Source of the DNA: a bacterium | GTDB taxonomy: Bacteria > SZUA-182 > DTGQ01 > JAFGSM01 | NCBI GenBank assembly: GCA_049472355.1 | Contig: JBLIRP010000009.1 | Span: 1 to 61,454 of the forward strand | Direction: 5' to 3' | DNA: 61,454 bases | Part shown: piece after piece, positions 21,571 through 54,380 of the stretch | Numbering within the stretch: the stretch's first letter is position 1 | How the letters are laid out: every line of letters begins with the position of its first letter | Position numbers and translations under genes: made by a program | Notes under the pieces: model-generated | The model's database searches: none | What the model saw: the letters and a program-made list of their open reading frames with translations, nothing else | What the model was told of the DNA's origin: nothing

Positions 21571-21782
21571 GCATAGTAGCTTCGCCCTGGCAAGGTTGGG
21601 TGGCAAAGTCGCGGGCCGTCTTGGTGGCCGGATGGGCAGCATAGAGGCTTCGCTTCGCTTCGCCCTGGCAAGCTTGGTTAGAGGCTCCGCTTCGCGAAGC
21701 TTGGCTGGTGCAGTCGCGGGCCGTCTTGGTGGCCGGATGGGCAGCATAGAGGCTTCGCTTCGCTTCGCCCTGGCAAGCTTGG
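21571..21782. repeat. Intergenic direct repeat: two identical 71-bp units (21607-21677, 21712-21782) plus a partial unit; REP-like family
   Basis: AGTCGCGGGCCGTCTTGGTGGCCGGATGGGCAGCATAGAGGCTTCGCTTCGCTTCGCCCTGGCAAGCTTGG read twice; partial copy at 21571-21599. Confidence 0.9.
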
Positions 21783-24800: not shown

Positions 24801-24954
24801 TGCCCGGAGGGAGCCGATGCCGCACACGAGCGCACGGCAACGGATAAAGGGGTTCAGCGAGGTGAAGAAGGGCTACACCCCCCAGAAGGCGATTCGTGAG
24901 GCACGACGATGCCTCAAGTGCAATTTCGAAAAGATGATGGGATACGAGCGATGA
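21832..24954 (+). CDS. NuoF/HydB-like NADH subunit fused to a GltD/NfnL-like FAD/NADP(H) domain
   Basis: NADEGDPGAFMDRS, GGPSGGC and ESCGKCIPCRVG, followed by SPCEHVCP, GRVCNHPCQ, IGGGPSG, GGGNVATDAAR..YRR, FAGGDVVTGP and EARRCLKC. Confidence 0.9.
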   Translation: MTRITSRKEFDAFTKKLKGRQDPKKRVVSVCGTGCSAVGSLEVIDALRNEVAKRGLADAVEVRKTGCHGFCERGPIVTILPEDYFYNKVTVEDVPEIIEKTIRNGELVERLLYLDPQTGKRCAHTNDVPFYAGQMRKVFKHNGSIDPTDIEAYIAVDGYQGLVKALFEMEPGDVIEEVKDAGLRGRGGGGFLTGLKWEFCRKAHGEPKYVICNADEGDPGAFMDRSILEGNPHAVIEGMLIAAYGIGSEHGYIYVRAEYPLAIRYLLIAVEQAESIGLLGEHILGTDFSFDLKIKQGAGAFVCGEETALIASIEGKRGMPRSRPPFPAHQGVWGKPTNINNVETFANVPLIILEGAKSYAEVGTDKSKGTKIFALAGKINNTGLVEVPLGTSLRDVIYTIGGGIPKGRKFKAVQLGGPSGGCIPAQHLDTPIDYDSLQDLGAIMGSGGMIVMDENTCMVDIARYFLEFVQSESCGKCIPCRVGTKRMLEILIKITEGRGQMSDLDLLEELAVHIKNTALCGLGQTAPNPVLSTLRYFRDEYETHILYQKCPAASCEMLFLSPCEHVCPLGTDVPNYVNLIAEGRFSEALAVVREKNPFPGVCGRVCNHPCQVKCRRGEIDDPIAIADLKRVAADYGETQSAVPTANIRWKNERVAVIGGGPSGLTAAYFLGQLGFRVTLFEAMPVLGGMLAWAIPEYRLPKKTLDHEIRLILPWIAELKTSTKIGKDVPFESLLSGDFRALYIAVGAPVGIPLTIPGSDLDGVWDGLSFLTQVSFGKRPAIGDRVCVIGGGNVATDAARTALRLGAREVTICYRREREDMPALDEEILEAEEEGVAFLFLTIPLEIKGTKGRMTGLVCQKAVLGETGPDGRRRPVPSPGTEYLLACDTIIGAIGQRLDLAFLPEAIQREICSGNRIAAEVTSGRTCNPMIFAGGDVVTGPNTVIDAIAAGRKAALAISECISPHSSRHLRVISNERILYHEVEVDESMGDARREPMPHTSARQRIKGFSEVKKGYTPQKAIREARRCLKCNFEKMMGYER

Positions 24955-27638
24955 TCAGTCTGACCATAGATGGCAAGAGGGTTTATGCGGAACCGGGATC
25001 AACCATCCTTGATGCTGCGCGGGGCAATGAAATCCATATCCCAACCTTGTGCCAGTACCGCGATCTGACCCCCTTCGGAGGGTGCCGGATCTGCCTTGTG
25101 GAGGTCGAAGGGATACCGCGACTCCTTGCGTCGTGTGTCACCCCGGTGGTCGACAAGATGGTGGTGCACACGCAATCAGAGAGGATTTATGCGGCGCGAA
25201 GGATGAACCTGGAGCTGATCTTTTCCGCCCATTCCGGGGATTGCCTCACCTGCGAGCGCAGCGGCCAGTGCGAGCTGCAGGACCTGGCCTACGAATATAA
25301 ACTCTCAGGGATACGGTTCGAAGGGGATAAGGTGTTTCCTGCGGTCGATGATAGCAACCCTTTCATCGAACGGGATCACAGCCGATGCATCCTCTGCGGC
25401 CGGTGCGTCAGGGTCTGCGACGAGGTTCAGGGGGTCAGGGCGATCGACTTTCAGGGGCGGGGATACGATGCGAAGATCGGGACCGCATTCAACCGGCCCC
25501 TCAACTGCGAGTTCTGCGGCCAGTGCATCGCGTCCTGCCCCACCGGCGCATTGATCCCGGCAATGTCGAGGTTCAAGGGACGGCAGGTGCAGACCGACAG
25601 GGTGCAGACCACCTGCCCTTACTGTGGGTGCGGGTGTCAGCTCACCTTGCACGTCAGGGAGGGCCGGATTGTGGGGGTAACCTCCCCCGAGGAAGGCGTC
25701 AACAGCGGGTATCTATGCTCGAAGGGGAGGTTCGGGTATGAATTCGTGCATGCCGACACACGGCTTCTCTCACCCAAGGCGAAAACCTACAAGGGATTCA
25801 AATCCATTGAATGGCGGCAGGCCTTGCGGGTGGTGAGCTCGAGACTCAAGGAGATCAAGGAACGGTACGGCCCGGATGCCATTGCCGGCCTGAGCTCCGC
25901 CAAATGCACCAATGAGGAGAATTACCTCTTCCAGAAGTTCATGCGCGCGGTGATCGGCACCAATAATGTGGATCACTGCGCCCGTCTCTGACACGCCCCC
26001 ACGGTGGCCGGTCTGGTCGCCACACTGGGAAGCGGCGCAATGACCAATTCCATTGCGGATATTACGGAGGCGCGATCCATCCTGGTGATCGGCTCCAATA
26101 CCACCGAGGCGCATCCCATCATCGCGCTCAAGATCAAGGAGGCGGTCAGGAGGCGGGGGGCCTCCCTTATCGTTGCGGACCCCCGGTCCATAGATCTCGC
26201 ACGGTGGGCCACACTCCACATCAAACAGAGGCCCGGCACGGACATCGCCCTGCTCAACGGCTTCATGTACGTCATGCTGCACGAAGGGCTCCAGAATCGT
26301 GATTTCATCGCGGCACGGACCGAGGGGTTTGATGCGATCGAGAAGGTTGCTGAGCACTATCCCCCTGAAAAGGTGGAGGAGATCACCGGGGTGCCCAGGG
26401 AGGAGATCATCAAGGCGGCGCATCTTTTTGCTGCGGGAAGGCCCGGCGCGATATTTTACGCCATGGGGATCACCCAGCACATCACCGGCACCGACAATGT
26501 CAAGGCGGTGGCGGACCTGGCGCTTTTGACCGGAAACCTGGGAAAGCCGGGCAGCGGGGTCAATCCCCTCCGGGGGCAGAACAACGTGCAGGGGGCATGC
26601 GACGTGGGATGCCTGCCCAACGTGTTCCCCGGATATCAATCGGTGGAGGACCGGACGGTCAGGGAGCGGTTCGAAAAGGCGTGGAACGCGAGTCTGCCGG
26701 CCAAGGCGGGGCTTACCGTGCTCGAAATGATCGATGGGATCGAAAGGGGGACCATCAAGGCGATGTACATTATGGGGGAGAATCCCCTCCTTTCCGATCC
26801 GGATATCAGCCATGTGCGCGAGGCCCTGAAAAAACTCGAACTGCTCGTAGTGCAGGACATCTTCATCACGGAAACGGGCGAACAGGCGGATGTGGTGCTC
26901 CCCGGTGCCTCCTTTGCTGAGAAGGACGGCACCTTTACCAACACCGAGCGCCGGGTCCAGCGTATACGAAAGGCGTTCCCCCCACCCGGGGAAGGCCGGC
27001 CTGACTGGCGTATCATCCAGGACCTGTCAAACGAAATGGGGTACCGGATGCAGTATGCCCATCCCGGTGCAATCATGGATGAGATCGTCTCCCTGACCCC
27101 CATCTATGGGGGGATACGTTATGATCGGCTCGACGATAACGGCCTGCAGTGGCCCTGTCCCGACGTCGAGCATCCGGGGACCCCCATCCTCCACGTGGAT
27201 CGCTTCCCGCGGGGAAGGGCCAGGTTCATCCCCGTGGAGTATGTTCCCCCTGCCGAGGTAACCGATACGGAATATCCCTTTATCCTGACCACCGGCAGGA
27301 TGCTCTTCCATTTTCACACCGGGACCATGTCCCGTCAATCCAAAGGCCTGAACCAGGTTTGCCCTGCACCCTATATTGAAATAAATACGGAGGACGCACT
27401 GAACCTCTCCCTGCAGGCCGGCGATCGCGTCCGGGTGACGTCACGCAGGGGGTCCCTGGAACTGGAGGCGAAGGTCACGGAGAGGATCACCAGGGGGATG
27501 GTGTTCATCCCCTTTCATTTCAGGGAGGCGGCGGCAAACCTTTTGACCATCGGCAGTTATGATCCTGTCGCGAAGATACCGGAATACAAGGTATGTGCTG
27601 TTCGCATTGAGCCCATCAAGATGGGAGGAATACGATGA
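24951..27638 (+). CDS. fdhF: Selenocysteine-containing Mo/W formate dehydrogenase alpha subunit with N-terminal NuoG-like Fe-S domains (joins ORFs 24909-25991 and 26004-27638)
   Basis: [41 protein letters not shown] and [10 protein letters not shown]; in-frame TGA at 25989-25991 sits at the catalytic Cys/Sec position. Confidence 0.93.
25989..26030 (+). promoter_or_regulatory. Sec codon (UGA) plus bacterial SECIS hairpin
   Basis: GGTGGCCG-GTC-TGGTCGCC stem-loop (26003-26021) begins 11 nt after the UGA and has GU in the loop, resembling the E. coli fdhF SECIS. Confidence 0.8.
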
Positions 27639-28275: not shown

Positions 28276-30039
28276 TTAGAACAATCCCTTCACCTTGCCG
28301 GTTTTCACATCCACGTCGATCCGGCGGAAGGCCGGGTCGGAGGATGTTCCCGGCATCAGCTTGATGGCCCCCGCCACCGGCACCACGAATCCCGCTCCCT
28401 TGTACATCAGGATGTCGCGGATGGGGAGGGTCCATCCCTTGGGCCGGCCCTTGAGATTCGGGTCATGGGTAAGGCTCAGGTGGGTCTTCACCATACAGGT
28501 GCCCAGCTTCGAGATCTCCGGGCTTTTCTGTATCCTCTCCACCTTGGCCATGGCCTCGGGGGTATAGGTGACATCCGATGCGCCGTATACCTCGGTTGCA
28601 AGGAGCCTTATCCTTTCCTCGAGCGGCGTGTCCTGCTCGTAGAGGAACCTGAAGTGATTCTGCTCCTTGCATGCCTCGATCACCGCATCCGCCAGCTCGA
28701 GTGCCCCGGCGCCACCCTTGAGCCAATGCTCTGACAGGGCCACCCGCGCGCCTGTTGCCTCGGCTATGCGCCTGATGGCGGCGATCTCCGTCTTGGTATC
28801 GGTGTGGAAGGAGTTGATGCAGACCACCGGATTGATCCCTGCCTTTTTTACGGTCTCTATGTGGGCGATCAGGTTCTCACACCCCTTTTCAACGAGTCCC
28901 ACGTTCTCTGAAATGTACTCATCATCGAGCGGCTTTCCGGGAGCCACCCTCGGTCCTCCGCCGTGCATCTTCAACGCCCTGACCGTGGCCACGATAACGG
29001 CGCAGTGAGGCGTGAGGCCGCTGAACCGGCACTTGAGGTTCCAGAACTTCTCGAACCCGATGTCGGCGCCGAAGCCGCTTTCGGTAATCAGATAGTCGGA
29101 GAGCTTCAACGCCACCTGGTCCGCGACGATGGAGGACTGGCCAATGGCGATATTGGCAAAGGGGCCGGCGTGCACCAGCACCGGCTGCCCTTCAAGGGAT
29201 TGCATCAGGTTCGGATTCAGGGCCTGGACCATCCATGCGGTCATGGCCCCATCGACCTCCAGGTCGGCGGTGGTAATGGGATCTCCCTTCTTGTTGTAGG
29301 CAACCACGATCCTGCCCATGCGCTCCCGCATATCCTTCAGGCTGGTGGATACGGCGAGTATTGCCATGATCTCGGAACTCACCGAGATGGCAAAACCGGA
29401 TTGCATCAGTACCCCGTCCATCTTCCCGCCGTGCCCGATAGTGATGTCCCGCAACGCCTGGGCGCAAAAATCCATGATCCAGCGCATCTCGATGTTTTTG
29501 GCATCGATATCCAGCCGCTTCAGGTTTCGCTTGGCGAGCTGCGCGTTGTCGTAGTTTTCCTCGTGCTGCATACGTGAGGTCAGCGCCACCATGGCGAGAT
29601 TATGGGCGTTGGTCACCTTGTCAATATCCCCGGTCAGCCCGAGGGAAAAAGGGGTAAGGGGGATGCATTGCGCCAGGCCGCCCCCGGCTGCGCTTCCCTT
29701 GATGTTGAAGGTCGGTCCTCCCGACGGCTGGCGGATGGCGCCCATGACCCTTATCCCCTTTTTCCCGAGCCCCTGCACCAGCCCCATGGTGGTGGTGCTC
29801 TTCCCCTCGCCGAGCGGGGTCGGGGTGATGGCGGTTACATCGATGTATTTGCCGTTCGGCTTGTTTTGTAACCTTTTGAGTACGGCGGCGAAGTCCACCT
29901 TTCCCAGGTAATGCCCCATGGGGATGAGCTCTTCTTTTTCCAGGCCGAGTACGTCTGCAAGCTCAAACACAGTTTTCATTCTGCCTTCTGCTTCTTCCGC
30001 GATTTCCCAGTCCTTATGATTTCTCGGATCTAAAGGCAT
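28276..30039 (-). CDS. fhs: Formate--tetrahydrofolate ligase
   Basis: [55 protein letters not shown] and KTHLSL. Confidence 0.96.
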
Positions 30040-30542
30040 AGCATCCCTCCATTTTTAGAACGGTATTTTAATTAAAGAGCACAGCGTTTAGAAATTCTGT
30101 GTCAGACCCTGTAAACCCGGTCGCAAATCCTGCCCGACGATCGCACATTGGGCATGTCTATTTTCTAAAATAAAACTATAGTATCATAAATAAATAGCCC
30201 GAACAATGCCGGATTCGTTATCCTGATGTGCATGTATCTGTAATATGCTCATTTTTTTGGAAATTATAACGCATTTTTAGAATTACTGATACGTGCTCGA
30301 TCCATTCGGGCAGGGAATGAATAAGGCTGCCCTATCTCGTAATTTTCGTCATTGCGCAGGGGGGACTGATGATTGGTGGCGGGGTAGGTGCGGAGGATGC
30401 CGCCTCCTGCATAAAGTATATGATATACCGAGGGATTTCCCGATGGGCACCACAGGCCCCCTGCCCCTCTGCATTATAGAAAATCCCTTGAAAATGAGGG
30501 ACTTTCGGCGAGATTTATTTTTTCGATGGATAGAGAGAAAAA

Positions 30543-30570
30543 TTGCATAAAATGTGCATTATGATATAAT
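30543..30570 (+). promoter_or_regulatory. Sigma70-type promoter upstream of the ECF sigma gene
   Basis: TTGCAT, 16-nt spacer, TATAAT with extended TGn. Confidence 0.55.
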
Positions 30571-30609
30571 TTGCTCGAACAATTTTATTAACCCGGAGGT
30601 TGCGAGAGC

Positions 30610-31227
30610 ATGAACACGACACAGACGGATATCGAATTTCTTGAATTCCTGAATAGTTGCGCCAATAAGGAAAAGGATGCCTGGGATACCTTTATCGGTA
30701 AGTACTCCAATCTTATATACAACTATATCATACGCACGCTCAAGAGGTACAATTATTTTTTTCAGAATGACGAGGTGGACGAAATCTTCAATCGAATCTT
30801 CCTCGCCCTTTTGGATAAAAAATGCCGTCGATTGAGAAATTTCCGCGGTCAGAATGAACGATCGTTCGGCGCCTACCTGAGGGAGATCAGCTTCCATATC
30901 TCCATAGATTTTCTCAGGGAACAGAAGAACTTCATAGAATTGGAGCAAATAGAATACTTCGTTTCAGACGATGATAAATATGAGGGTCTCGATCGCAGAG
31001 AGCTCAAAGAAATCATCGCATGTTTGAAAAATGAACTTCCTGAACGACATAGATACATCTTCAGGTTGATTTACGAGGAGGGGCACGAGTTGTCTCAGGT
31101 TGCCGAAATGCTTGATTTGAAGCTCAATGCAGTTCATCAGTTGAAATTCCGCATGATTAACAACCTTATTAAAATAGCAAAGAAAAAGAATTTATATTAT
31201 GAGCTTAAAAAATTCATAAGTGAATGA
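30610..31227 (+). CDS. ECF-type sigma-70 factor
   Basis: Region 2-like AWDTFIGKYSNLIY...EIFNRIFLAL...SFGAYL and region 4-like LPERHRYIFRLIYEEGHELSQVAEMLDL; SD GGAGGT. Confidence 0.82.
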   Translation: MNTTQTDIEFLEFLNSCANKEKDAWDTFIGKYSNLIYNYIIRTLKRYNYFFQNDEVDEIFNRIFLALLDKKCRRLRNFRGQNERSFGAYLREISFHISIDFLREQKNFIELEQIEYFVSDDDKYEGLDRRELKEIIACLKNELPERHRYIFRLIYEEGHELSQVAEMLDLKLNAVHQLKFRMINNLIKIAKKKNLYYELKKFISE

Positions 31228-31278
31228 TAATGTGCTGCGTCTATACAGATGAAACGCTCATGAGCCGGATGAAACTGC

Positions 31279-31309
31279 GAATGTAGAATGTAGAATGTCG
31301 AATGTAGAA
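31279..31309. repeat. Heptamer tandem repeat (GAATGTA) x4
   Basis: GAATGTA GAATGTA GAATGTC GAATGTA GAA read directly. Confidence 0.8.
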
Positions 31310-31609
31310 GTGAAACGCAGATGAGCCTTCGGCTCACAAGGAAGCATGAAAATCCTGGGGGATTTTCAGATGAAACGAGAAAGAACGACAGGGTTAGTGA
31401 AACATTTCATGACAAAAGAGGCGCATTATGTCGAAAGGTTCAGAAAGGAATTGGTTAGCAATGGGTCTTTATGAGGCCTGTTATATAAAGGTTTGTAAGG
31501 ATTGCAGAGATTTTCAGGATTTTACAATCTTAACCGATGTGAGGAGATATGGTATGCAGTGTTCCTTCAAACGGAGGCATTGATACCCTATTCCTCGTGG
31601 AGAAACCCA

Positions 31610-32323
31610 ATGAACAAGGAGCTTGAGAAGTTAGACGCCTTGATAGCCGGGGTCCAAAAAAGGAAGCCATCGCTCAGAACCCCCGCCCTTCCCGACCGCA
31701 ACTGCATTCCTGAAGAAGTGCTCGAGGATTACCTTGACCATCGCTCACCACCCGAACAGAAGGAAGAGGTTGAGGCACACCTTGCCGATTGTTCCATATG
31801 CTTTGACAGGATGATGATCCTGAGGGCCATGCGCTCCGAGGAACAGGTTTCCCTCCCGCAGCGATTGTTGGACAGGGTACGAGATCTCGTTCCGGAAACC
31901 AGGCCGAATTGCCTGGAGCTGGTGCTCGGTTTCGCCATTGATACGATCCATATCATTCGACACACCGGTATCATGCTCTCTCCCGCGCTTATACTCGAAC
32001 CGGTCAGGGGGGAAAATCAGACCGAGGTACGGGGAAAGACGGATTATGTCGAGGTCAGGAAGCCCTTCGGCAACATTACGGTCAATGTTCAGGTCGAGCG
32101 CGTGAACGGGTCGTATAAGCTGATGGTGAACACCCTCGATACCAAAAGCGATTCCGCACCTGTCAATATGAGATTGATCCTTTCTTCACTGAGCCGGGAA
32201 TTGAATTCGGTTGACGATAGTGAGGCCGTCTTTTACATCAAGCTCAAGCAATATGTCATTAAAGTCATCCATGAAGGCCAAGAGATCGGGACGGTGAGCC
32301 TGGATTTACGGAAGGAAGAGTAA
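31610..32323 (+). CDS. Zinc-finger (zf-HC2/ZAS) anti-sigma-like protein, soluble
   Basis: C...LEDYLD...VEAHLADCSIC (HxxxCxxC); no obvious TM helix; beta-rich C-terminus; next to the ECF sigma. Confidence 0.78.
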   Translation: MNKELEKLDALIAGVQKRKPSLRTPALPDRNCIPEEVLEDYLDHRSPPEQKEEVEAHLADCSICFDRMMILRAMRSEEQVSLPQRLLDRVRDLVPETRPNCLELVLGFAIDTIHIIRHTGIMLSPALILEPVRGENQTEVRGKTDYVEVRKPFGNITVNVQVERVNGSYKLMVNTLDTKSDSAPVNMRLILSSLSRELNSVDDSEAVFYIKLKQYVIKVIHEGQEIGTVSLDLRKEE

Positions 32324-32384
32324 CCCAGGGCTGATGCGGCGCAGTCTCGATATGATCGGCACGTTCCATCTCATGCAATGAAAA

Positions 32385-34634
32385 ATGATAAAAAAGGACG
32401 AGTCTCTTATGAAACAGGTCGTCTATTTAGAAATTATACGAAAGGGGCCACACCTCGAGAGCAGTCTCTCAAAGGGTGAGCAAACCCTCACCCACTACGA
32501 GGAGTCCCCGGTATCACCCGATGAGTTGAGCAAGAGATGCAATGAACTCATGCATCTGTTGAATATGGTGTCCCGCAGGGGCGCCATCCCCACCTCCGTC
32601 ATCGAAGAGATGCAGCAGATGGGGAGGGTCCTCTATAACGAGATATTTCCCCTTTCCATAAAGACGCAACTCTTTGACTGTCCCCCTTCCGACTTGGTAT
32701 TGAGGATCGACAACACCCTGGTGCACGTGCCCTGGGAATTGCTGTTTGACGGAGAGCATTTCCTGTGCGAGAAGTTCAATATCGGCAGGATGGTCAAGAC
32801 GCAGCAGATCGTGGACAAGCGGAGGGAGTCACGCCCCAGTTTTCCGCTCAGGATCCTCATCATCGCCGATCCCCGAAGCGACCTCAGGGCCTCCTATGAG
32901 GAGGGGAAGAGGATCCGCGACCAACTGCAGAGCGACACGGTCAAGGTCACCCTGGTCACCAGCGAGGTGAGCAGGGATTTTCTCAAGAAGCGGCTGTTCA
33001 ACTATGATCTCATCCACTATGCAGGGCATGCCGACTACGATCTTGAAAGTCCCAGCAAGAGCGGATGGCTCCTGGAGGATGGAAAATTTGCCACCCTCGA
33101 TATCAGAAAGATGGGAGGAAGTAATCCGCTGCCATGGATGGTGTTTTCCAATGCATGCCAGTCCGGTCAAACCGAGGAGTGGAGGGTTGACGAGGAAGGA
33201 GAGCAGAAGATCTATGGCCTGGCAAACGCCTTTCTCCTCTCAGGCGTGCAGCATTATATCGGAACCTTCTGGAAGGTGCTGGACGAGCCGAGTACGAATT
33301 TCGCCATGGAGTTCTATAACCACCTCATAGAGGGTGCCTCCATAGGGGAATCCATGCGCTCCGCCCGGCTGGCGCTTCGGGAAAGGTATGGCGAGGGGAA
33401 TATCCTCTGGGCCAGTTACCTCCTGTATGGGGATCCGGGTGTGCGCTATTTCAAAAAGGAGGAGGAAGAGCAGGAGGGCATCCTGGCCGGTGCCGGGGCA
33501 AGCACGCCGTCTCCCCAAAGGATCCCGGAGACCTATATACAGAAAAACGGCCTGCGTACCCGTTCGGCTGCCAAGGGTGATAACGGGGCATACGGGTGGC
33601 GCTCAAAGAAAGGCGTGAGCGATGGTGCCGAACGCTCCCGAAGGGCCCTTTCGAAAAGGCTTTTTTGGGCTGCTGCAGGGATTTTCATAGGGCTTTTTCT
33701 CGTTTTCGGCGCTATTCAGTATACGATTCGCGCGAGAAATTCCCGGTCCGGAAACGTCATTTCATCGCCTGTACACGGGACTGAGGAATTGCAGAACCTG
33801 AAGGCCTTGGTTGAGGCAGGGATGGCGTCGGATGATCAGATGGCGGATTTTTTCCAGCGGTTGATGGAGAAATATCAGGGCGATGCCGCTCAACCGCAGA
33901 ACGAACAGGATATGTGGACATCGAGGCCGGTTGCCCTGTTTTTTGTTGCCACGGAACCGGGCGGTGATGACAATGTCAGGAACAGTGCAACGGCAGAGAG
34001 CCTGGTGCACAGGCTGATGCAACGTCTGGGTCAGGATTCCCGTATCACCATTATCGAAAGGGAATACCTGTTGACGCTTCTCAAGGAATTGGACATCGGT
34101 TCCTCGCGCCTTGCCGATCCTGACCATACGCTTAAATTAGGGCAGATCATATCAGGGAACCTTTTCACCATATTCAGTATCGGCCGGATGGAGAATACCT
34201 GGCAGGCGAATGTCAGGATCATCGCAAGCGAGACATCAAAGGTCGAGGCCGCCCTGAGCGAGACCTGGACCGAATCGCGCGATCTGGATATGGTGGCAAA
34301 GGGATTGGCGGAGAAATTCCTCGCAGCGATAGGGGAGGCATTCCCCTTGCAGGGCAGGATAAAACATTTCTTCAGCGATCAAAAGGTTATGCTCAACATC
34401 GGGTACCGTCAGGGGGCGAAGGAGGGAATGAGACTGTCAGCGCTGAAGGATCGGAAGATTCTCAGTTCCCAGGGAGAGTCCCTCGCCACCGACCAGGTAT
34501 CCGTTGCCTCTTTGAAGGTTACCGAGGTCAGGGAGGATTTCTCCTATGCCGAGGTTCTCAATCGCACGGACGATCTCGCCTCAGGGATGAAGGTCACCGT
34601 GCAAAGGATGCAACCGGTGCAATCGTCCGGATAG
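32385..34634 (+). CDS. CHAT (caspase/separase-like) protease with a single TM helix and periplasmic CsgG-like plus FlgT-C-like domains
   Basis: VPWELL, LIHYAGHA (His), VFSNACQSG (Cys), GLANAFL, YIGTFW and WASYLLYGDP; TM LFWAAAGIFIGLFLVFGAI; IIEREYLLTLLKELDIG...LGQII. Confidence 0.85.
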   Translation: MIKKDESLMKQVVYLEIIRKGPHLESSLSKGEQTLTHYEESPVSPDELSKRCNELMHLLNMVSRRGAIPTSVIEEMQQMGRVLYNEIFPLSIKTQLFDCPPSDLVLRIDNTLVHVPWELLFDGEHFLCEKFNIGRMVKTQQIVDKRRESRPSFPLRILIIADPRSDLRASYEEGKRIRDQLQSDTVKVTLVTSEVSRDFLKKRLFNYDLIHYAGHADYDLESPSKSGWLLEDGKFATLDIRKMGGSNPLPWMVFSNACQSGQTEEWRVDEEGEQKIYGLANAFLLSGVQHYIGTFWKVLDEPSTNFAMEFYNHLIEGASIGESMRSARLALRERYGEGNILWASYLLYGDPGVRYFKKEEEEQEGILAGAGASTPSPQRIPETYIQKNGLRTRSAAKGDNGAYGWRSKKGVSDGAERSRRALSKRLFWAAAGIFIGLFLVFGAIQYTIRARNSRSGNVISSPVHGTEELQNLKALVEAGMASDDQMADFFQRLMEKYQGDAAQPQNEQDMWTSRPVALFFVATEPGGDDNVRNSATAESLVHRLMQRLGQDSRITIIEREYLLTLLKELDIGSSRLADPDHTLKLGQIISGNLFTIFSIGRMENTWQANVRIIASETSKVEAALSETWTESRDLDMVAKGLAEKFLAAIGEAFPLQGRIKHFFSDQKVMLNIGYRQGAKEGMRLSALKDRKILSSQGESLATDQVSVASLKVTEVREDFSYAEVLNRTDDLASGMKVTVQRMQPVQSSG

Positions 34635-34662
34635 AATTATAAAATTTGGATAAACACATGAC

Positions 34663-36708
34663 ATGAAGGCACCATATAATGCAAAACGAGTTTCCCTTTC
34701 CATACTCCTATCGATCCTTTCGCTGTTAGTCCTCCACTGTGCTGTTCCGCCGGGCCCAGTCTTTCAGAAGGATGGTAAGCTTTACGGGAAAACAGAGGGA
34801 CAGTGGGGGGGGCGATGGTGGAACTATTACCAGCGAGGCCTCTCCTATGCCCAGGGCGAATATTGGGAACACGCTATCAGGGACCTTCAGGAGGCAATCA
34901 CGCGGAGATTTGAGGATCAGCGGAGGGCGAGGACCTATGGCCTCCACATCATGGATGACTATTTTCCCCATCGTGAACTCGGGATCGTATACTATCGACA
35001 GGGGAGATTCAACGAGGCGATAGCGGAGCTTGAGGCATCCATCGGTCAATTCGAATCGGCAAAGGCGAAATATTTTCTGAATGAGGCGCGGCGCGGACTT
35101 TTACAGGAGACAGGGGCCGATACGTCATCGCCGAGGCTGTATATTGCGTTTCCCAAAACAGGGCATTTGACCAGGTTTTCCAGCCTGACCATGTCCGCGG
35201 AGGCGGTGGATGACCAGTTTGTTGAGGCAATCTCGGTCAATGACCGGAAAATTCCCGTGGAACTTTCCAGCAGCACCATCACCTTTAACACCGACATACA
35301 GCTCAAAAGGGGAGAGAACAAAATCGCGGTGCAGGTAAGGGACCTCGTCGGCAGGAAGAACCGGAAGGAAATCGTGGTCTGGTGTGATCAGGAGGCGCCG
35401 GTGATCTATGTCGATCAGATCGTGGGTGACGGTCTGGGCCAGGGATATACCATTGACGGGTATATTGCGGATATGAGCGGTGTCGCAGGTTTTTGGCTCA
35501 ATGAAATCCGTGTTGAGTGTGCGGAGACCGGGGGGAGTGAATTCTCGGTGTATCTTCATGCCGCCGATATGAAACCCAACCTCACCTTCCAGGCGGTGGA
35601 CGGGCTGGGGAACAGTACCTCCGGTGAGATCAGGATTGCGGAGATCCTTGGCGCAGGGCGTACGGAGGGCTTTCTCCGGCCTCGCCTGGCCTATTGCGGG
35701 AGTGACCTGAGGGGGATGCTTGCCGCCCTCGCTGAAGGGGAATCCCCTTCAGCTCAGACCGGGCCGTTCATCCGGCTGAAGGACCTCCCCGATCGCATTA
35801 CCGTGGACTGGGAGGAATGCTTTCTGGAAGGAGAGGCACGGGATCAGGCCGGGATCACCGGGGTGATTGTCAACGGCATCCCCCTGGTGACGAGGACCGC
35901 CAAGGTGGTGTTTTTCAATTTTGTGCTTCCCCTGGAGGTGGGGGAGAACGTGATCACTGTGCAGGCCGAATCCGAGTCAGGGCAGGTGCGGACCACCACG
36001 GTCCATGTTGAGCGAACGCTCAATTGCGTGCAAAGGATCGGCACGCGTCTGAATATGGCCATTTTCCCGTTTAAATATCTGGGTGAGAGGAATGAGATAA
36101 AGGACCTTCTCTACAATGCGATCATTCAGGGATTCGTGGAGCAGCGGCGGTTTCAGATTGTGGACCGGGAGCGGATTGACGGGCTCCTCGCGCGCATCAC
36201 GGAGGAGAAAGACGATCCCTCCTGTGTGGAAATGGGCAGGCTGGTCACCGCCGAGGGGGTCATCGCCGGAAGCGCCTATTTTTATGACGGCTATCTGGAG
36301 ATCATCGCCAGGGTGGTTGATACGGAAACCACCGTCGTCCTGGATGCCGAAGAGGTCTTCGGCCCGATATCCTCCCTCAAGGATGTGCAGCTCCTGGCCC
36401 AGGGGTTGTCCCTCAAGTTCAAACAGGCATTTCCCCTGGCGGAAGGCAGTGTCGTGAATATTCTTTCGGATGCCGTGCAGATCGATCTCGGGAACAGGGA
36501 CCGGCTTCTCCCCTATATGAAGGTCATATTCTTCAGGGAGGATCAGCCGGTAAAGATCCCCGGTTCGGAAAGGATTGCCGAGAGGCGTTTCACCATCCTT
36601 GGAGAGGGGAGAATAAAGAAGCTGTATGAATCAACCGCCGATGCGGTGCTTGCATCGCAGAAGGACATCCCTCGAGTGGAGGTAGATGACCGGGTGATTA
36701 CAAAATGA
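34663..36708 (+). CDS. Probable exported (lipo)protein: TPR, Ig-like repeats, CsgG-like and FlgT-C-like domains
   Basis: Signal peptide ending LVLHC (atypical lipobox); TPRs (YYQRGLSY, RELGIVYYRQGRFNEAIAEL); LKRGENKIAVQVRD and LEVGENVITVQA; MAIFPF...FQIVDRERID. Confidence 0.75.
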   Translation: MKAPYNAKRVSLSILLSILSLLVLHCAVPPGPVFQKDGKLYGKTEGQWGGRWWNYYQRGLSYAQGEYWEHAIRDLQEAITRRFEDQRRARTYGLHIMDDYFPHRELGIVYYRQGRFNEAIAELEASIGQFESAKAKYFLNEARRGLLQETGADTSSPRLYIAFPKTGHLTRFSSLTMSAEAVDDQFVEAISVNDRKIPVELSSSTITFNTDIQLKRGENKIAVQVRDLVGRKNRKEIVVWCDQEAPVIYVDQIVGDGLGQGYTIDGYIADMSGVAGFWLNEIRVECAETGGSEFSVYLHAADMKPNLTFQAVDGLGNSTSGEIRIAEILGAGRTEGFLRPRLAYCGSDLRGMLAALAEGESPSAQTGPFIRLKDLPDRITVDWEECFLEGEARDQAGITGVIVNGIPLVTRTAKVVFFNFVLPLEVGENVITVQAESESGQVRTTTVHVERTLNCVQRIGTRLNMAIFPFKYLGERNEIKDLLYNAIIQGFVEQRRFQIVDRERIDGLLARITEEKDDPSCVEMGRLVTAEGVIAGSAYFYDGYLEIIARVVDTETTVVLDAEEVFGPISSLKDVQLLAQGLSLKFKQAFPLAEGSVVNILSDAVQIDLGNRDRLLPYMKVIFFREDQPVKIPGSERIAERRFTILGEGRIKKLYESTADAVLASQKDIPRVEVDDRVITK

Positions 36709-36770
36709 TGCGCACCGGCCTCATGAGTGGTCGCACACGTGACGCGGTTACGGAAGGGATTGCATAGCGT

Positions 36771-38102
36771 ATGATGCACATGCGACGATACATTGCAGTA
36801 ATGAGTATTTTCGTTGCCCTTGCAGCGGGATGCATAGGCAGTGGAATGCTCGGAGGCCCTGTCTGCGCGTATGCCCAGATGGAATCCTTCAGTGTTGCAT
36901 CGCCTCCCAATCCGGTAGGGTCCGGGGCACGGGCCATGGGCGTCGGCGGGGCGTTCGTGGCGGTGGCAGATGACGCAACCGCTGCATCGTGGAATCCCGG
37001 CGGGCTTCCCCAACTGCAAAAACCCGAGGTCTCGGTGGTCTTTGCACTCGAAAGGCGGACAGAGACCCGAAGCTCCTTGTCTCTGCCCGATCTTGAAGGT
37101 GAGGAGACAACCACCCTGTCCGATCTGAACTACCTCAGCATGGTGTATCCCTTCAGCCTCGCGCGGAGGAATATGGTCTTTTCCTTGAATTATCAAAGGC
37201 TGTATGATTTTAACAGGGAATTCACGATACACTTGAGCGACGGTTCGATCGAGGCATTTCAATCAGACGGGACCCTCTATACCGTTTCACCGGCGCTGGC
37301 AATGCGGGCAACGGAGGATCTCTTCGTCGGCCTGACGATCAATATCTGGTCCGACTCATGGACCGGAAGGAGCGATTGGGTAAACAACTACTCCCTCAGC
37401 ATAGATGCAAACCATGTCCAAACGGCGAAGGAGTCCTATAAAAATTTCAGGGGGGTGAATGCCAATCTCGGGTTCTTGTACCGGATCAATCCCCGATGGA
37501 CCATCGGCGCGGTGTACAAGACGCCGTTTCGTGCCCGTCTCGACTACGGGTATTACAACAAATCGACACCGGCAGAGACCGAGAGCCCGGCGTATGGAAG
37601 GATCGAATCGATGGACTTCCCGTCCGCGCTCGCCCTGGGGGTCTCATGTCGCATCTCCGATGCGTGGACCATTTCCGCCGATGTCACGAGAAGGGACTGG
37701 GATGAACTGGTGTGGCGCAATACACGGGGGCAGAGCTACGGTCTTTTTACCCATTTCGACCCGAATGTGAACCCCGTTGAGTTTCCGCATATCGATCCGA
37801 CCTATTCCTTGCGGGTGGGGGTGGAATATCTCAGGATACTGGAAAGGACGGTTGTCCCTGTCAGGGCTGGGATCTTCTACGATCCCGTACCCTCCGTCGG
37901 CAGCCCGCAAAGTGAATACGGAATGAGCCTCGGATCGGGGATAAGCCTCGGCGATCTCATCGTGGATTTCGCCTATGAGTACAGGGTTAGGTTTGATGTG
38001 CCGGGAACTGAGACGGGATTGGCTGAAAAGTCATGGGGCCATTTGGTGTATGAGGATAAAAAACAACACAAGTTTTTGTTGTCTGCAATCTATCATTTTT
38101 GA
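36771..38102 (+). CDS. Outer-membrane beta-barrel, FadL/OmpP1/PorV-like
   Basis: Signal peptide, GSGARAMGVGGAFVAVADDATAASWNPGGL, amphipathic strands and C-terminal aromatic YHF. Confidence 0.82.
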   Translation: MMHMRRYIAVMSIFVALAAGCIGSGMLGGPVCAYAQMESFSVASPPNPVGSGARAMGVGGAFVAVADDATAASWNPGGLPQLQKPEVSVVFALERRTETRSSLSLPDLEGEETTTLSDLNYLSMVYPFSLARRNMVFSLNYQRLYDFNREFTIHLSDGSIEAFQSDGTLYTVSPALAMRATEDLFVGLTINIWSDSWTGRSDWVNNYSLSIDANHVQTAKESYKNFRGVNANLGFLYRINPRWTIGAVYKTPFRARLDYGYYNKSTPAETESPAYGRIESMDFPSALALGVSCRISDAWTISADVTRRDWDELVWRNTRGQSYGLFTHFDPNVNPVEFPHIDPTYSLRVGVEYLRILERTVVPVRAGIFYDPVPSVGSPQSEYGMSLGSGISLGDLIVDFAYEYRVRFDVPGTETGLAEKSWGHLVYEDKKQHKFLLSAIYHF

Positions 38103-38158: not shown

Positions 38159-38353
38159 GGTATAAGGATACGGAACAATCATGAGCGGAGGTGTTGCGCC
38201 CCGCGATTCTTTAAATAGTACTATAATCAGTTGCTTTCGCGAGGACAACCACACGAGGAACCCCTGAGTGCGGATGTCTCTTCGTGTGTGCAGCACGTAC
38301 AGTATATAAGCGGTTAGCGTAAAGAAATTTACCATTTTTCGAGGTTGGTGAGA

Positions 38354-40210
38354 ATGAGGTTATCATTGAGGAGCATACCCTGTATCGTTTTCCTCATCTT
38401 CCTGTTCATTGCCCTGCTCGTGGCGACGGCCCTTTTGTACCCCGGCAGGATTTATGCCCAGGGTTCGGGGCAGACCGGGCTCGGCAGCCTCGGCATGGGC
38501 CTGGGTCTTGGCGGTCTTGGCATGGGTGGACTGACCGGGATTTCCAGCCTTGGCCTGGGAGGACTGACGGGAAGCCTTGGCCTGGGAGGACTGACGGGAA
38601 GCCTTGGCCTGGGAGGACTGACCGGGATGTCCAGCCTTGGCGTGGGTGGGTTGACGGGGGGCCTGGGCATGGGCGGGCTGACCGGGATGTCCAGCCTGGG
38701 CCTGGGTGGGTTGACGGGCGGCCTTGGTATGGGTGGCTCGGCACTGGGGCTCACGGGCATGGGCCTCCCCTTACCAGGCGGCCTCGGTATGTTCATGGGC
38801 GGAGGTATAGGCGGGGGGGCCAGTCTGATGTCTCCGATGGGGATGAGCAGTCCCTTCATGGGCCTCTCCATGCCGATGATGGGAGGCCCCGGCATGTTCC
38901 TCGGCATGATGCCGATGATGCCCGGAATGTTCCCCTTGTACCAGGCCGGAGAACCCTACGGTGGGCTGGGGGCCACGTACAACTATAATGCCGCCGCCTA
39001 TGGGAATTTGATACGGCAACAGATGTCCAATACATCGAATTTTCCCGGCATTCCAGTATTTGAGGGCGCCGGTGGGTTTCAGTTCATCCCTCCTCCGCCG
39101 ATCTATCTGCCGGGGCCACTCAGCGCAACCATTACAGGCTTGGTGTATGACGAGGACGGCAATTTCTTGGAGGAGGTTAAGGTCTATGTGAGGTCCGACT
39201 CATCGATCAGTGATCTCACCGATCAATACGGTCAGTACTCCCTGCGTGTGTTGGGGGGGATCTATACCCTCGTTTACCAGAAGGATGGGTATGAAACAAA
39301 GTACAGGGAAAAGATCAATGTCCTTGGCGGGAGGACCTACCCGCAGACGCCGGTAATCTTGAAGGAGGATGTGACGAAACCGCCGGCAAATGATCCCCCT
39401 GTCCTGCTCCCCATGGGGCCGATCGAGGTCATCGCGGGCTTCGAGATCGAGCTCGATATCCATGCGCAGGACCCCGACAACGACGAGCTTACCTACTCCT
39501 ATTCCGGATGGAAGGCCGAGCACTGGGAACAGGACCTGGTCTATGTCACCACCGAGGATGACATCGGCGAACATGAGGTTACGGTCACCGTGCGGGACCC
39601 GGGAATGCTCGAAGACAGCGAAACGATCGTTATCAGGGTGTATCCGGGGCATGAGCTGATTCTTACGGAGGGATTCAACCTGATAGGCTATCCCTTTGAG
39701 AACGGCGATCCGAATTTTTCCGCCTTCGATCTCCTGCAGGTTCTGGGTGACGCCTCTCAGATCGATTCCGTCTGCTATTATTCGAACAATGGGGACCGCT
39801 ATGTGAGCGCCTGGTACAACGAAAGCGGAGATCCGGAAGGCACGGATTTCATCATAGAGATCAGCCGGGGATACATCGTGTATGCCAATGAGGATATGAC
39901 GAGGATCGTAAGAAACCTCTATACCCAGGGGACCCAGGACATATATCTCTACGAAGGCATGAACCTGGTCGGGTTCGCATCATTGCCGTTGGGGTATACC
40001 GCGTTCGACCTCTTGTGGGGCCTGGGCCGTGATTATGTGTTGGCGGTGTATCGCTACAACACCTTCTGGGGGGATTGGGACTCCGCCTACTGGTTGAACG
40101 GAAGCTCCTCGGGGGTGAATTTTCCCATCGTCTTTGGCGAAGGATATCATGTCCAGATGAAAGTGGGGCACAGTCTTGCCCTCTCCCGGTTCCGTATGCT
40201 CGCATGGTGA
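38354..40210 (+). CDS. Secreted protein: Gly/Leu/Met low-complexity repeats, carboxypeptidase-regulatory-like domain, cadherin/Ig-like domain and duplicated C-terminal domain
   Basis: Signal peptide (IYA-Q); GGLTG repeats; ITGLVYD...TDQYGQYSL..GGIYTLVYQKDGY; NDPPVL..AQDPDNDELTYS; two LxEGxNLxG...AFDLL...GY repeats. Confidence 0.75.
   Translation: MRLSLRSIPCIVFLIFLFIALLVATALLYPGRIYAQGSGQTGLGSLGMGLGLGGLGMGGLTGISSLGLGGLTGSLGLGGLTGSLGLGGLTGMSSLGVGGLTGGLGMGGLTGMSSLGLGGLTGGLGMGGSALGLTGMGLPLPGGLGMFMGGGIGGGASLMSPMGMSSPFMGLSMPMMGGPGMFLGMMPMMPGMFPLYQAGEPYGGLGATYNYNAAAYGNLIRQQMSNTSNFPGIPVFEGAGGFQFIPPPPIYLPGPLSATITGLVYDEDGNFLEEVKVYVRSDSSISDLTDQYGQYSLRVLGGIYTLVYQKDGYETKYREKINVLGGRTYPQTPVILKEDVTKPPANDPPVLLPMGPIEVIAGFEIELDIHAQDPDNDELTYSYSGWKAEHWEQDLVYVTTEDDIGEHEVTVTVRDPGMLEDSETIVIRVYPGHELILTEGFNLIGYPFENGDPNFSAFDLLQVLGDASQIDSVCYYSNNGDRYVSAWYNESGDPEGTDFIIEISRGYIVYANEDMTRIVRNLYTQGTQDIYLYEGMNLVGFASLPLGYTAFDLLWGLGRDYVLAVYRYNTFWGDWDSAYWLNGSSSGVNFPIVFGEGYHVQMKVGHSLALSRFRMLAW
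38546..38622 (+). repeat. 27-bp in-frame tandem repeat (SLGLGGLTG), about 2.9 copies
   Basis: AGCCTTGGCCTGGGAGGACTGACGGGA at 38546 and 38573, partial at 38600. Confidence 0.85.
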
Positions 40211-53168: not shown

Positions 53169-53425
53169 GTTAGAGCGGAGCAAAGCGAAGCTACTATAAT
53201 ACAGCTTTTTCTGTAAAGCCCGAAGGCTTGCTTCGTTTTCGAGCCCGAAGGGCGAGTTGATGTGTGCCCGAAGCGAGCCATACAGATAAACGGGTAATTG
53301 GAAGGCGGGGAATTAGCGGCTGCTCTGTGCTTCGCGTGACAAGGGAGGATTGCGCAGTCGCGATCGTTTTGAATGACCGGAAAGGGCAACATAGTGCTTC
53401 GCTGCGCTCCGCCGGACAAGTTTGG
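53169..53425. repeat. REP/MITE-like element, copy B (opposite orientation to copy A)
   Basis: Reverse complement of 53169-53252 matches 48558-48641 ungapped (67/84 by hand count); reverse complement of about 53385-53425 matches 48415-48456. Confidence 0.75.
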
Positions 53426-53492
53426 ATTGCGCCCCCCCTCTCCGCTGGATATTGACCAATTCCGGGGGGCAGATCCCGGCAGAGGGAACTCC

Positions 53493-54380
53493 ATGGAAGG
53501 GCTTCTTGACACCTTTCTCACCTACCTGGTCACCGAAAGGGGCCTGGCCGAAAACACCATTGCCGCCTACGAGCATGACCTGCGGTGCTACCTTCACTAT
53601 ATGCGGCATGCGGGCATCCCTTGCATCGAGCAATCGTGTACGGAGCACGTCCTCGACCATCTCGGCCGCCTCAAGGAACAGGGACTCTCTCACCGCACCA
53701 GGGCGCGCCACCTCTCCTCCATTCGTCATTTCTATGCCTTTTTGACCAGAAGGGGGATTCTCAAAAAAAACCCCACCCGCCTCATGTCCATGCCGCGGTT
53801 ATGGAGGCGTATTCCGATGGTACTCACCTATGAACAGACAGAGGCCCTTTTGAACCAACCGGATGTGACGACCCCCCATGGCCTTCGGGACAAGGCCCTC
53901 CTCGAAATTTTGTACGCGACCGGTATGCGGATAACGGAGGCACTGCAGGTCTGTCTCGAGGATTTGAACCTTCAATCAGGCTTTTGCATCTGTACGGGAA
54001 AGGGGGGGAAACAGCGGGTGATCCCCCTCGGGCATGAGGCGCTTCATTGGTTGGAGGAGTATTTGGCACGGGGAAGGCCTCGACTGGCGCGGGCAAACAA
54101 GGGAGGGCACCTGATCCTATCGCAAGTGGGAGGGGCCATGACACGGCAGGGCGCCTGGAAGATCCTCAAGCAATACGCGCTCAGGGCGGGGCTTCCGCCG
54201 GAGGTAACCCCCCACACCCTGCGCCACTCCTTTGCAACCCATCTCCTTGAAAACGGCGCAAACCTGCGGGTTGTGCAGATACTTCTCGGCCATTCGGATA
54301 TCGCCACCACGCAGATTTATACCCACGTCACCATGGAGAGGATCAGGCAGGTGTATAACCGCCACCACCCCCGGGCATAA
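53493..54380 (+). CDS. xerD: Site-specific tyrosine recombinase XerD
   Basis: ERGLAENTIAAY, LYATGMRITE, GKGGKQR, TRQGAW, TPHTLRHSFATHLL and LLGHSDIATTQIYTHV. Confidence 0.92.
   Translation: MEGLLDTFLTYLVTERGLAENTIAAYEHDLRCYLHYMRHAGIPCIEQSCTEHVLDHLGRLKEQGLSHRTRARHLSSIRHFYAFLTRRGILKKNPTRLMSMPRLWRRIPMVLTYEQTEALLNQPDVTTPHGLRDKALLEILYATGMRITEALQVCLEDLNLQSGFCICTGKGGKQRVIPLGHEALHWLEEYLARGRPRLARANKGGHLILSQVGGAMTRQGAWKILKQYALRAGLPPEVTPHTLRHSFATHLLENGANLRVVQILLGHSDIATTQIYTHVTMERIRQVYNRHHPRA

Follow-up and report, generated by a model that had tools for sequence, protein, structure and literature searches.

A cassette of five co-oriented open reading frames (ORFs) occupies positions 30610-38102 of the DNA analysed here, a window of 61,454 nucleotides (positions 1 to 61,454 of contig JBLIRP010000009.1, GenBank assembly GCA_049472355.1; contig C138 in our numbering) from a metagenome-assembled genome (MAG) of an uncultured bacterium that is 87.5% complete, the genome measuring 3.49 Mb. 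The five genes, all on the + strand and separated by gaps of 382, 61, 28 and 62 nt, encode in order a sigma factor of the extracytoplasmic function (ECF) type, an anti-sigma factor, a protein with a caspase-like CHAT domain, a tetratricopeptide repeat (TPR) lipoprotein and a FadL-type barrel. They lie where an earlier note on this DNA had placed them, and Pfam and TIGR models match their domains. The note interpreted them as a pathway in which an envelope signal activates the CHAT protease, which cuts the anti-sigma and frees the sigma; this overall interpretation is partly supported by the structure of the proteins and by comparison of the locus with its relatives.

The sigma factor (205 amino acids; 30610..31227) comprises sigma2 and sigma4 regions only within about 200 residues, and thus belongs to the ECF type (group IV): residues 23-188 match TIGR02937 (sigma70-ECF) at 64.9 bits against a cut-off of 42.9, and Sigma70_r4 (8e-9) and r4_2 both exceed their cut-offs, with the Pfam model Sigma70_r2 alone giving no match at E<=0.1. 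A PDB sequence search with the sigma factor found nothing.

The anti-sigma factor (237 amino acids; 31610..32323) consists of an N-terminal helix, a CHCC zinc domain and a beta-sandwich (residues 101-235). Its start is taken as the ATG at 31610, which is conserved in 12/12 orthologues; the mechanically called ORF began at a TTG at 31502. The protein matches zf-HC2 (5e-6; 26.9 bits, cut-off 22.2), its residues C32, H57, C61 and C64 are invariant in all 12 orthologues, and its profile matches solved anti-sigma domains, namely those of RsiW (4.5e-5), DdvA (PDB 8rlz and 8rot), RsrA and ChrR. With an H-x3-C-x2-C motif and an upstream Cys in a helical domain encoded beside an ECF sigma, it is a zinc-binding anti-sigma (ZAS, zf-HC2) protein. 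An AlphaFold2 model built from 118 diverse relatives has a mean predicted local distance difference test score (pLDDT) of 87 and places helices at residues 35-93, followed by the beta-sandwich; a Foldseek search of the PDB with the whole model returned nothing at E<=1e-3, only generic Ig-like sandwiches. No 19-residue segment exceeds the hydrophobicity threshold in the window protein or in any of 14 relatives, so the anti-sigma is soluble and, as the earlier note had argued, the RseA/RseP route of membrane proteolysis cannot apply to it as such.

Within the beta-sandwich, residues 122-145 (31973..32044) form a low-confidence loop, residues 131-140 averaging a pLDDT of 49, which bears Arg133 (AGG, 32006-32008). 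This arginine is kept in 117 of 118 aligned family members, in the context P-[AV]-x-[LV]-R-[GS], and is the most conserved position besides the zinc ligands; paralogous and orphan anti-sigmas have Arg or Lys, then Gly or Ser, at the same place. The model and alignment make the Arg133 loop a candidate cleavage or docking site. The family is a large one: a full hidden Markov model search retrieved 1450 representative clusters at E<=1e-3, of which 263 reach E<=1e-10, and among the 150 best clusters listed most are of about 210-250 amino acids and match over most of the profile. A word-indexed profile search found 21 relatives at E<=1e-10, annotated at most as 'zf-HC2 domain-containing protein', 'anti-sigma factor family protein' or 'hypothetical protein'.

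The CHAT protein (749 amino acids; 32385-34634) begins with a cytoplasmic module (residues 1-385; 32385..33539) made up of a conserved head of about 100 amino acids and the CHAT domain (PF12770, 8e-37; 127.6 bits, cut-off 24). By sequence it is a caspase-fold peptidase with the His/Cys dyad: the two motifs that the earlier note had reported, HYAGHA (residues 211-216) and SNACQSG (residues 255-261), are intact, with His215 encoded by CAT at 33027-33029 and Cys258 by TGC at exactly the codon given, 33156-33158. Across 70 diverse homologues Cys258 never varies, and at least 90% of them retain His215. A PDB sequence search with the CHAT profile found nothing. The protein has no signal peptide, and its sole hydrophobic segment, a predicted transmembrane helix at about residues 426-447 (33660..33725; Kyte-Doolittle maximum 2.39), follows the CHAT domain, an arrangement shared by 13 of 14 relatives, the segment of the remaining one falling under the threshold. 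A relative from another phylum (G037) carries a class III cyclase domain (residues 64-223) and a CHAT domain (334-607) that both precede its single helix (657-686), and class III cyclases use cytoplasmic ATP. Because there is no signal peptide, the helix comes after the CHAT domain, cyclase and CHAT lie on the same side in this relative and the C-terminal fold is of a periplasmic type, the CHAT domain is predicted to lie in the cytoplasm and the C-terminus in the periplasm, in agreement with the topology that the note had proposed.

The label 'CsgG' that the note had given to the C-terminus has to be replaced. Residues 478-749 (33816..34631) were modelled by AlphaFold2 with a mean pLDDT of 77.7 as a two-domain module whose best fold match across both domains is FlgT of the Vibrio flagellar H-ring (Foldseek E 1.4e-12 to 3w1e and 8z5n over about 281 columns, with 9-10% identity); the title of entry 8z5n places FlgT within a periplasmic LPHT ring assembly. 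The N-domain of TolB (about 1e-5), LpoB (6e-5) and CsgG (2e-4) rank lower, and Pfam FlgT_C scores 27.6 bits against a cut-off of 27. By this ranking, the periplasmic part is FlgT-like, with a TolB-N-like and a C-terminal beta domain, rather than a CsgG pore; the resemblance is one of fold only, and implies no flagellar role. The identity of a CsgG curli pore was rejected because the Pfam match, at 17.4 bits, falls short of the 20.8 cut-off and spans no more than profile positions 33-93 of 210, because FlgT, TolB-N and LpoB outrank CsgG in the fold search, and because the module stands behind an inner-membrane helix. The module differs from FlgT itself in having no adjoining flagellar genes, in being fused behind a membrane helix to a protease and in being duplicated on the TPR lipoprotein. 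Between the CHAT domain and the helix, the otherwise variable linker (residues 380-410, about 33523-33614) contains a conserved IQ..GL..(K/R)TRS patch, in which I385, Q386, G389 and W405 are nearly invariant in 12 orthologues and which could be a site of self-processing or docking.

The CHAT module (residues 1-400) is found in more than 1500 proteins with differing C-termini: FlgT/CsgG-like (about 690-750 amino acids in all), cyclase plus TPR plus CsgG-like (about 1050-1130) and trypsin plus DUF4384 (about 1020). The source names of these proteins, where stated, include Deltaproteobacteria, Desulfobacterales and Desulfatiglandaceae MAGs.

The fourth gene (34663..36708) encodes a likely lipoprotein with a signal peptide, TPRs (TPR_2), two Ig-like domains (Pfam Glucodextran_B and Big_13) and, at its C-terminus, a homologue of the CHAT protein's C-terminal module, residues 483-612 aligning with residues 540-675 of the latter (23% identity, E 5e-5). 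Its lipobox, LVLHC, is atypical; the Cys is retained in the 11 of 12 orthologues whose N-terminus extends that far (the L022 sequence ends short) and is preceded by Gly, as in canonical lipoboxes, in five orthologues of a second family. The fifth gene (36771..38102) encodes an outer-membrane barrel of the FadL/Toluene_X family (PF03349 at residues 54-416; 52.8 bits, cut-off 29.7) with an N-terminal hydrophobic segment. Identification of this barrel as BamG (63.7 bits, cut-off 250) or PorV (45.5, cut-off 90) was rejected. A complex that spans the envelope is suggested by the pairing of FlgT-like modules, by the TPR lipoprotein and, for this lineage, by the barrel.

A genome search identified full-length orthologues of the CHAT protein (46-94% identity) in 11 genomes of three families within one order of uncultured bacteria. 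The order sigma, anti-sigma, CHAT, TPR, followed by the barrel where the contig extends that far, is kept in all 11 orthologous loci, even though the identity of the anti-sigma is as low as 34-36%; sigma orthologues are 51-95% identical across the 11. A scan of contigs with two peptide patterns and the anti-sigma alignment, which misses distant relatives, found 10 loci, all in MAGs of the same order. The flanks of the cassette are unstable: in G006, for example, a radical-SAM gene is on the opposite side. The barrel is matched in all 10 orthologous loci with DNA extending to its position (one match being cut by a contig end), the contig of the eleventh ending within the TPR gene.

The same architecture recurs outside the orthologue group. 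The genome of the window contains three paralogous cassettes (on C138, C117 and C73), each with its own sigma, ZAS anti-sigma, CHAT protein and TPR/CsgG-like partner, and such a partner follows the CHAT gene in all three annotated paralogous or foreign cassettes (C117, C73 and G037). The conserved neighbourhood that the earlier note had proposed to look for does exist. The barrel is missing from these three cassettes, so the core is four genes rather than five, the barrel being an accessory specific to the orthologue group of the window. The C117 and C73 cassettes lie at L024 3855-9519 and L025 3141-9100; the latter is adjoined by a divergent gene for an M48-peptidase/zinc-ribbon protein (L025 9594-11672).

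Linkage was counted in 20 genomes of the window's phylum and 13 of a second phylum. The former contain 36 full-length anti-sigma matches, 27 of which are located 27-244 nt upstream of a CHAT-module match on the same strand; four more are within 4 kb of one in another arrangement, and five have no CHAT match on their contig, one of these being truncated by the contig end. Counted from the other side, 30 of 48 strong CHAT-module matches have a full-length anti-sigma beside or near them. In the second phylum, 10 of 10 anti-sigma matches are directly upstream of the single CHAT-module match of each genome; two genomes have neither gene, and one has a CHAT gene at a contig edge. The anti-sigma and the CHAT protein are the tightest pair of the cassette. 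Two anti-sigma genes stand apart: at G010:C597 (L052, 3898-5343) an orphan sigma and anti-sigma lie beside glnA, and at G009:C17 (L053, 3940-4602) an orphan anti-sigma, whose upstream ORF matches no family, is convergent to a gene for a beta-helix/FadL-barrel fusion of 1077 amino acids.

Two promoter-like elements bracket the sigma gene. Upstream of it is a putative sigma-70-type site, TTGCAT-N16-TATAAT with TG ahead of the -10 element (30543..30570, +), and in 10 of 12 orthologous loci the 300 nt upstream of the sigma gene contain a match to the pattern TTGnnn-N16-18-TAnAnT; an ECF-like motif was found there in 0/12. The second element (31213..31243, +) is an ECF-like bipartite motif, TTCATAAG-N17-CGTCTA, that overlaps the stop codon of the sigma gene: TTCATAAG falls within the last sigma codons and CGTCTA just past the stop. 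Both blocks are present in 12/12 orthologous loci with a spacer of 16 or 17 nt (one locus has CGTCAT instead of CGTCTA), and the arrangement is kept although the position of the stop codon shifts. Variants at the same junction of paralogous and foreign cassettes are TGTAAG-N17-TCTCTA, TGTAAT-N16-GGTCTG and GGGAAG-N16-CGTCTA, and in three loci of the second phylum the motif is entirely inside the sigma/anti-sigma spacer. A loosened pattern, picked post hoc with the data already seen, matches 19 of 23 cassettes of the two phyla and 278 of 9200 shuffled regions. ECF promoters typically combine a CGTC-type -10 element with a spacer of 16-17 nt.

On the strength of these sequence patterns, transcription of the anti-sigma, CHAT, TPR and barrel genes is predicted to start from the motif at 31213-31243, which would be recognized by the sigma factor of the cassette. 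With the sigma gene under a housekeeping-type promoter and the anti-sigma and sensor genes under a sigma-dependent one, the arrangement would give negative feedback and no positive autoregulation.

The exact pattern TTCATAAG-N17-CGTCTA occurs once in the 3.49-Mb genome, a scan allowing one mismatch gave four matches against nine for a reversed control, and a position weight matrix scan of the genome for further regulon members gave nothing convincing. Outside the cassette, CATAAG-N16-CGTCTA is found at G000:C99 19835-19863 (L051 2837-2864), upstream of a Mutator-type transposase-like ORF and retained in G001 (C56) with three spacer changes, and at G004:C2 33888-33915 and G006:C27 145264-145291, upstream of small secreted Tyr/Gly-rich proteins; these copies are possibly further regulon members, or chance. 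The 785-amino-acid G006 protein downstream of a motif copy has no similarity to the Gly-rich protein encoded beyond the barrel of the window (see below). The sigma/anti-sigma spacer (31228-31609) measures 382 nt here and 261 nt in a 94-95% identical relative (L013), the extra 120 nt or so including GAATGTA-type short tandem repeats (about 31279-31310). An Rfam scan of 30000-32400 found nothing.

The genes of the cassette may thus constitute a self-contained sigma switch: the CHAT protease, anchored in the membrane, would cleave the soluble anti-sigma and free the ECF sigma, a reading to which we assign a probability of about 50%. The sigma gene would be expressed from its housekeeping-type promoter and its product kept bound to the zinc domain of the anti-sigma; some state of the envelope would be reported by the periplasmic FlgT-like modules that the CHAT protein and the TPR lipoprotein carry, here joined by the FadL-type barrel; and this report would activate the cytoplasmic CHAT domain, which would cleave the anti-sigma, most likely at the exposed Arg133 loop of the beta-sandwich. 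The leftover N-terminal fragment would then be degraded, as proposed for Csx30, and the released sigma would transcribe from 31213-31243, renewing the anti-sigma (negative feedback) together with the sensor proteins. That an envelope signal is the trigger, and that the CHAT domain is activated by clustering, is speculation. A broader proposal, which we offer tentatively and regard as rather less probable, is that the cassettes represent a widespread CRISPR-independent trans-envelope pathway, in which assembly or disturbance of a periplasmic FlgT-like complex made up of the CHAT protein, the TPR lipoprotein and sometimes a FadL barrel would activate CHAT, a single cytoplasmic cut of the soluble anti-sigma at an invariant arginine would replace site-1 and site-2 proteolysis, and sensor heads (FlgT-like, cyclase-TPR or trypsin-DUF4384) would be swapped on one protease core.

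Several observations weigh against proteolysis of the anti-sigma by CHAT. Linkage of the two genes is strong, not absolute: the orphan anti-sigmas at G010:C597 and G009:C17 belong to the same family and have no CHAT gene in the surrounding 6 to 7 kb, and 18 of 48 strong CHAT-module matches have no full-length anti-sigma neighbour (five have partial matches and three are at contig ends). The distances of sigma, anti-sigma and CHAT correlate (r 0.93-0.97), but shared descent confounds this measure, which therefore contributes no independent evidence; fused anti-sigma-CHAT proteins were not found in a length-based search, which is weak evidence; and with a single exact copy of the motif in the genome, no regulon is visible beyond the cassette. 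Arg133 could serve in binding or folding instead of cleavage, and a CHCC zinc anti-sigma could itself respond to oxidants, as RsrA does.

Alternatively, the sigma/anti-sigma pair might do no more than set the level of expression of an envelope machine composed of the CHAT protein, the TPR lipoprotein, the barrel and the Gly-rich protein. The anti-sigma would then answer a cue such as redox through its zinc site, and CHAT would act on something else, be it its own linker, a partner protein or targets in the cytoplasm. The sole exact promoter copy precedes the anti-sigma/CHAT operon, so that the cassette looks like its own regulon; the CHCC motif is intact; the exceptions to linkage run in both directions; and the IQ..GL..(K/R)TRS patch of the linker could be a self-cleavage site. 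Co-regulation leaves unexplained, however, why an anti-sigma family with a beta-sandwich and an invariant arginine tracks CHAT over two phyla and through paralogous duplications, and why the anti-sigma is soluble while every candidate sensor is located in the envelope. We therefore consider this explanation unlikely, although it survives better than the other alternatives.

The same linkage of anti-sigma and CHAT, together with the location of Arg133 in an exposed loop, would equally fit a partner switch without cutting, in which the anti-sigma is shared by the sigma and the membrane protein, the CHAT protein binds its beta-sandwich and is offered the Arg133 loop as a pseudosubstrate, much as securin (whose inhibition of separase is mentioned in PMC11506125) blocks separase, and an envelope signal alters the binding. 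The strictly kept catalytic dyad argues for real proteolysis somewhere, and we regard such a switch as quite improbable. Least probable is a role in anti-phage defence or abortive infection, with an envelope sensor detecting phage attack, CHAT as the effector and the sigma as an accessory: the known links between CHAT and sigma factors (craspase and DdvA/DdvS) are defence-related and the CHAT region weakly matches the PADLOC family BovA (E 4.8e-4), but the other five proteins match no PADLOC family, the window is core genome with an integrase-family ORF 13 kb off and no adjoining defence genes, and synteny throughout an order with up to three copies per genome fits ordinary signalling better than a mobile defence island.

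Release of the sigma through cleavage of the anti-sigma by CHAT has its closest precedent in craspase, which the earlier note had cited accurately: according to PMC10028731, the TPR-CHAT protease Csx29 cuts Csx30, which is bound to an ECF-like sigma, in its C-terminal domain, and the N-terminal fragment holding the CASP-sigma seems unstable. The cassette shares with it, as described there, the placement of a CHAT-family protease gene beside those of a sigma inhibitor and an ECF-like sigma, and the candidate cut, like that of Csx30, lies C-terminal to the part that holds the sigma. The differences are substantial: no Cas7-11, crRNA, other Cas families or array accompany the cassette in the window, as they would a type III-E module; the activator would be an envelope sensor, whereas that of craspase is reported to be target RNA; the inhibitor is a zinc anti-sigma-domain protein rather than Csx30; the protease is membrane-anchored; and the match of the sigma to the CAS_III-E_sigma model (NF041236) reaches 27.8 bits where the cut-off is 100.

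The second precedent, which the earlier note does not mention, is DdvA of Myxococcus xanthus, described in PMC11506125 as a transmembrane ZAS anti-sigma fused to a periplasmic TPR-CHAT, which needs RseP and whose CHAT the authors propose to be a site-1-like protease; that account reports the type from Myxococcota and one Comamonas species only. In both DdvA/DdvS, as presented there, and the cassette, an ECF sigma held by a CHCC zinc anti-sigma domain is functionally tied to CHAT, a tie that in the cassette is predicted, but the anti-sigma of the cassette is soluble and separate, its CHAT domain is predicted to be cytoplasmic and its periplasmic part is FlgT-like. The general course from an envelope cue through anti-sigma proteolysis to release of an ECF sigma resembles the DegS/RseP/RseA/sigmaE pathway. 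In that pathway, which PMC10028731 and PMC11506125 summarize, RseA resides in the membrane and undergoes a periplasmic cut followed by an intramembrane one, whereas the anti-sigma of the cassette has no membrane helix, so that a single cytoplasmic cut would replace both sites 1 and 2. In CalpL/CalpT/CalpS, as reported in 10.1101/2024.05.08.593097, a dedicated soluble protease likewise cuts a soluble anti-sigma and frees an ECF-like sigma; this protease is of the SAVED-Lon type, lacks a membrane part and is driven by the cyclic oligoadenylate that type III CRISPR supplies. A review (PMC8999054) mentions that CHAT-domain proteins are conserved near sigma factors of group ECF54 and that proteolytic control has been proposed; its description of ECF54 as lacking an anti-sigma sets that group apart from the cassette, whose most tightly linked partner is a dedicated ZAS anti-sigma.

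Literature searches for CHAT together with anti-sigma or ECF factors returned only the papers on DdvA, craspase and SAVED-CHAT/Lon and the ECF54 review, none of which describes the cassette, and searches for CHAT with CsgG, or with a sigma factor, adenylate cyclase and TPR, found nothing. The word 'CHAT' does not occur in the main text of PMC7826278, a paper on ECF classification whose supplement describes the groups and may bear on whether this sigma group and its context are catalogued. The cassette is thus apparently an undescribed form of protease-gated ECF sigma signalling. What is newly seen here is the promoter motif between the sigma and anti-sigma genes, the near-universal arginine of the anti-sigma loop, the frequency of linkage and the exceptions to it, the FlgT-like nature of the periplasmic module and the accessory status of the barrel.

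A possible sixth gene (38345..40210, +) encodes a membrane-anchored or secreted Gly-rich repeat protein, in which six copies of a 27/33-nt coding repeat (GLGGLTG-type) are followed by CarboxypepD_reg and Big_9 domains. Its C-terminal half has a match downstream of the barrel in nine loci, with a full ORF callable in eight. It is separated from the barrel gene by 242 nt in the window and by about 1 kb in the second family. The Gly-rich protein may be a cargo or a sixth operon member; its membership of the operon is uncertain. Contigs from RNA libraries of two studies give patchy cover from the anti-sigma through the Gly-rich gene, one contig spanning the anti-sigma/CHAT junction; this is compatible with expression, as weak evidence, since such libraries can hold DNA. 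Across the four runs 30154-31215, the sigma region, is uncovered, and uncovered parts carry no evidential weight.

The surroundings of the cassette are core genome, consisting of a Wood-Ljungdahl cluster and housekeeping genes. The Wood-Ljungdahl-type cluster (9524-30039) includes carbon monoxide dehydrogenase/acetyl-CoA synthase (CODH/ACS) subunits, NuoF-like and formate-dehydrogenase-like fusions and a formate-tetrahydrofolate ligase; the formate dehydrogenase-like frame seems split (24909-25991 and 26004-27638), which may reflect a selenocysteine TGA or a true split. Two adjoining 104-nt direct repeats, 88% identical, occupy the intergenic positions 21574-21782 ahead of the gene at 21832. 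The G+C content of the 2-kb bin 30001-32000, which includes the sigma region, is 0.44, compared with 0.52-0.63 elsewhere in the window. The sole integrase-family ORF is at 53373-54380. In line with the earlier note, the window contains no Cas families (Pfam at E<=1e-8 among its 38 other ORFs), and no CRISPR-like array was found in it. A scan for terminator and promoter consensus sequences was uninformative, with 11.8 terminator-like sites expected and 8 found.

Signal transduction in bacteria has ECF sigma factors as its third main mode, and the way in which soluble anti-sigmas sense extracytoplasmic events is largely open; the cassette offers a concrete candidate answer. The families involved are large (1450 anti-sigma clusters and more than 1500 CHAT-module proteins) and are common in uncultured anaerobes, and with the cassette, craspase and DdvA, two isolated published cases of CHAT/sigma association, become part of a broader theme. 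Experimental handles are provided by Cys258, by Arg133 as a candidate site and by the 31-bp promoter element. If the proposed switch is correct, the CHAT protein would be a membrane receptor with a caspase-fold protease as its cytoplasmic output.

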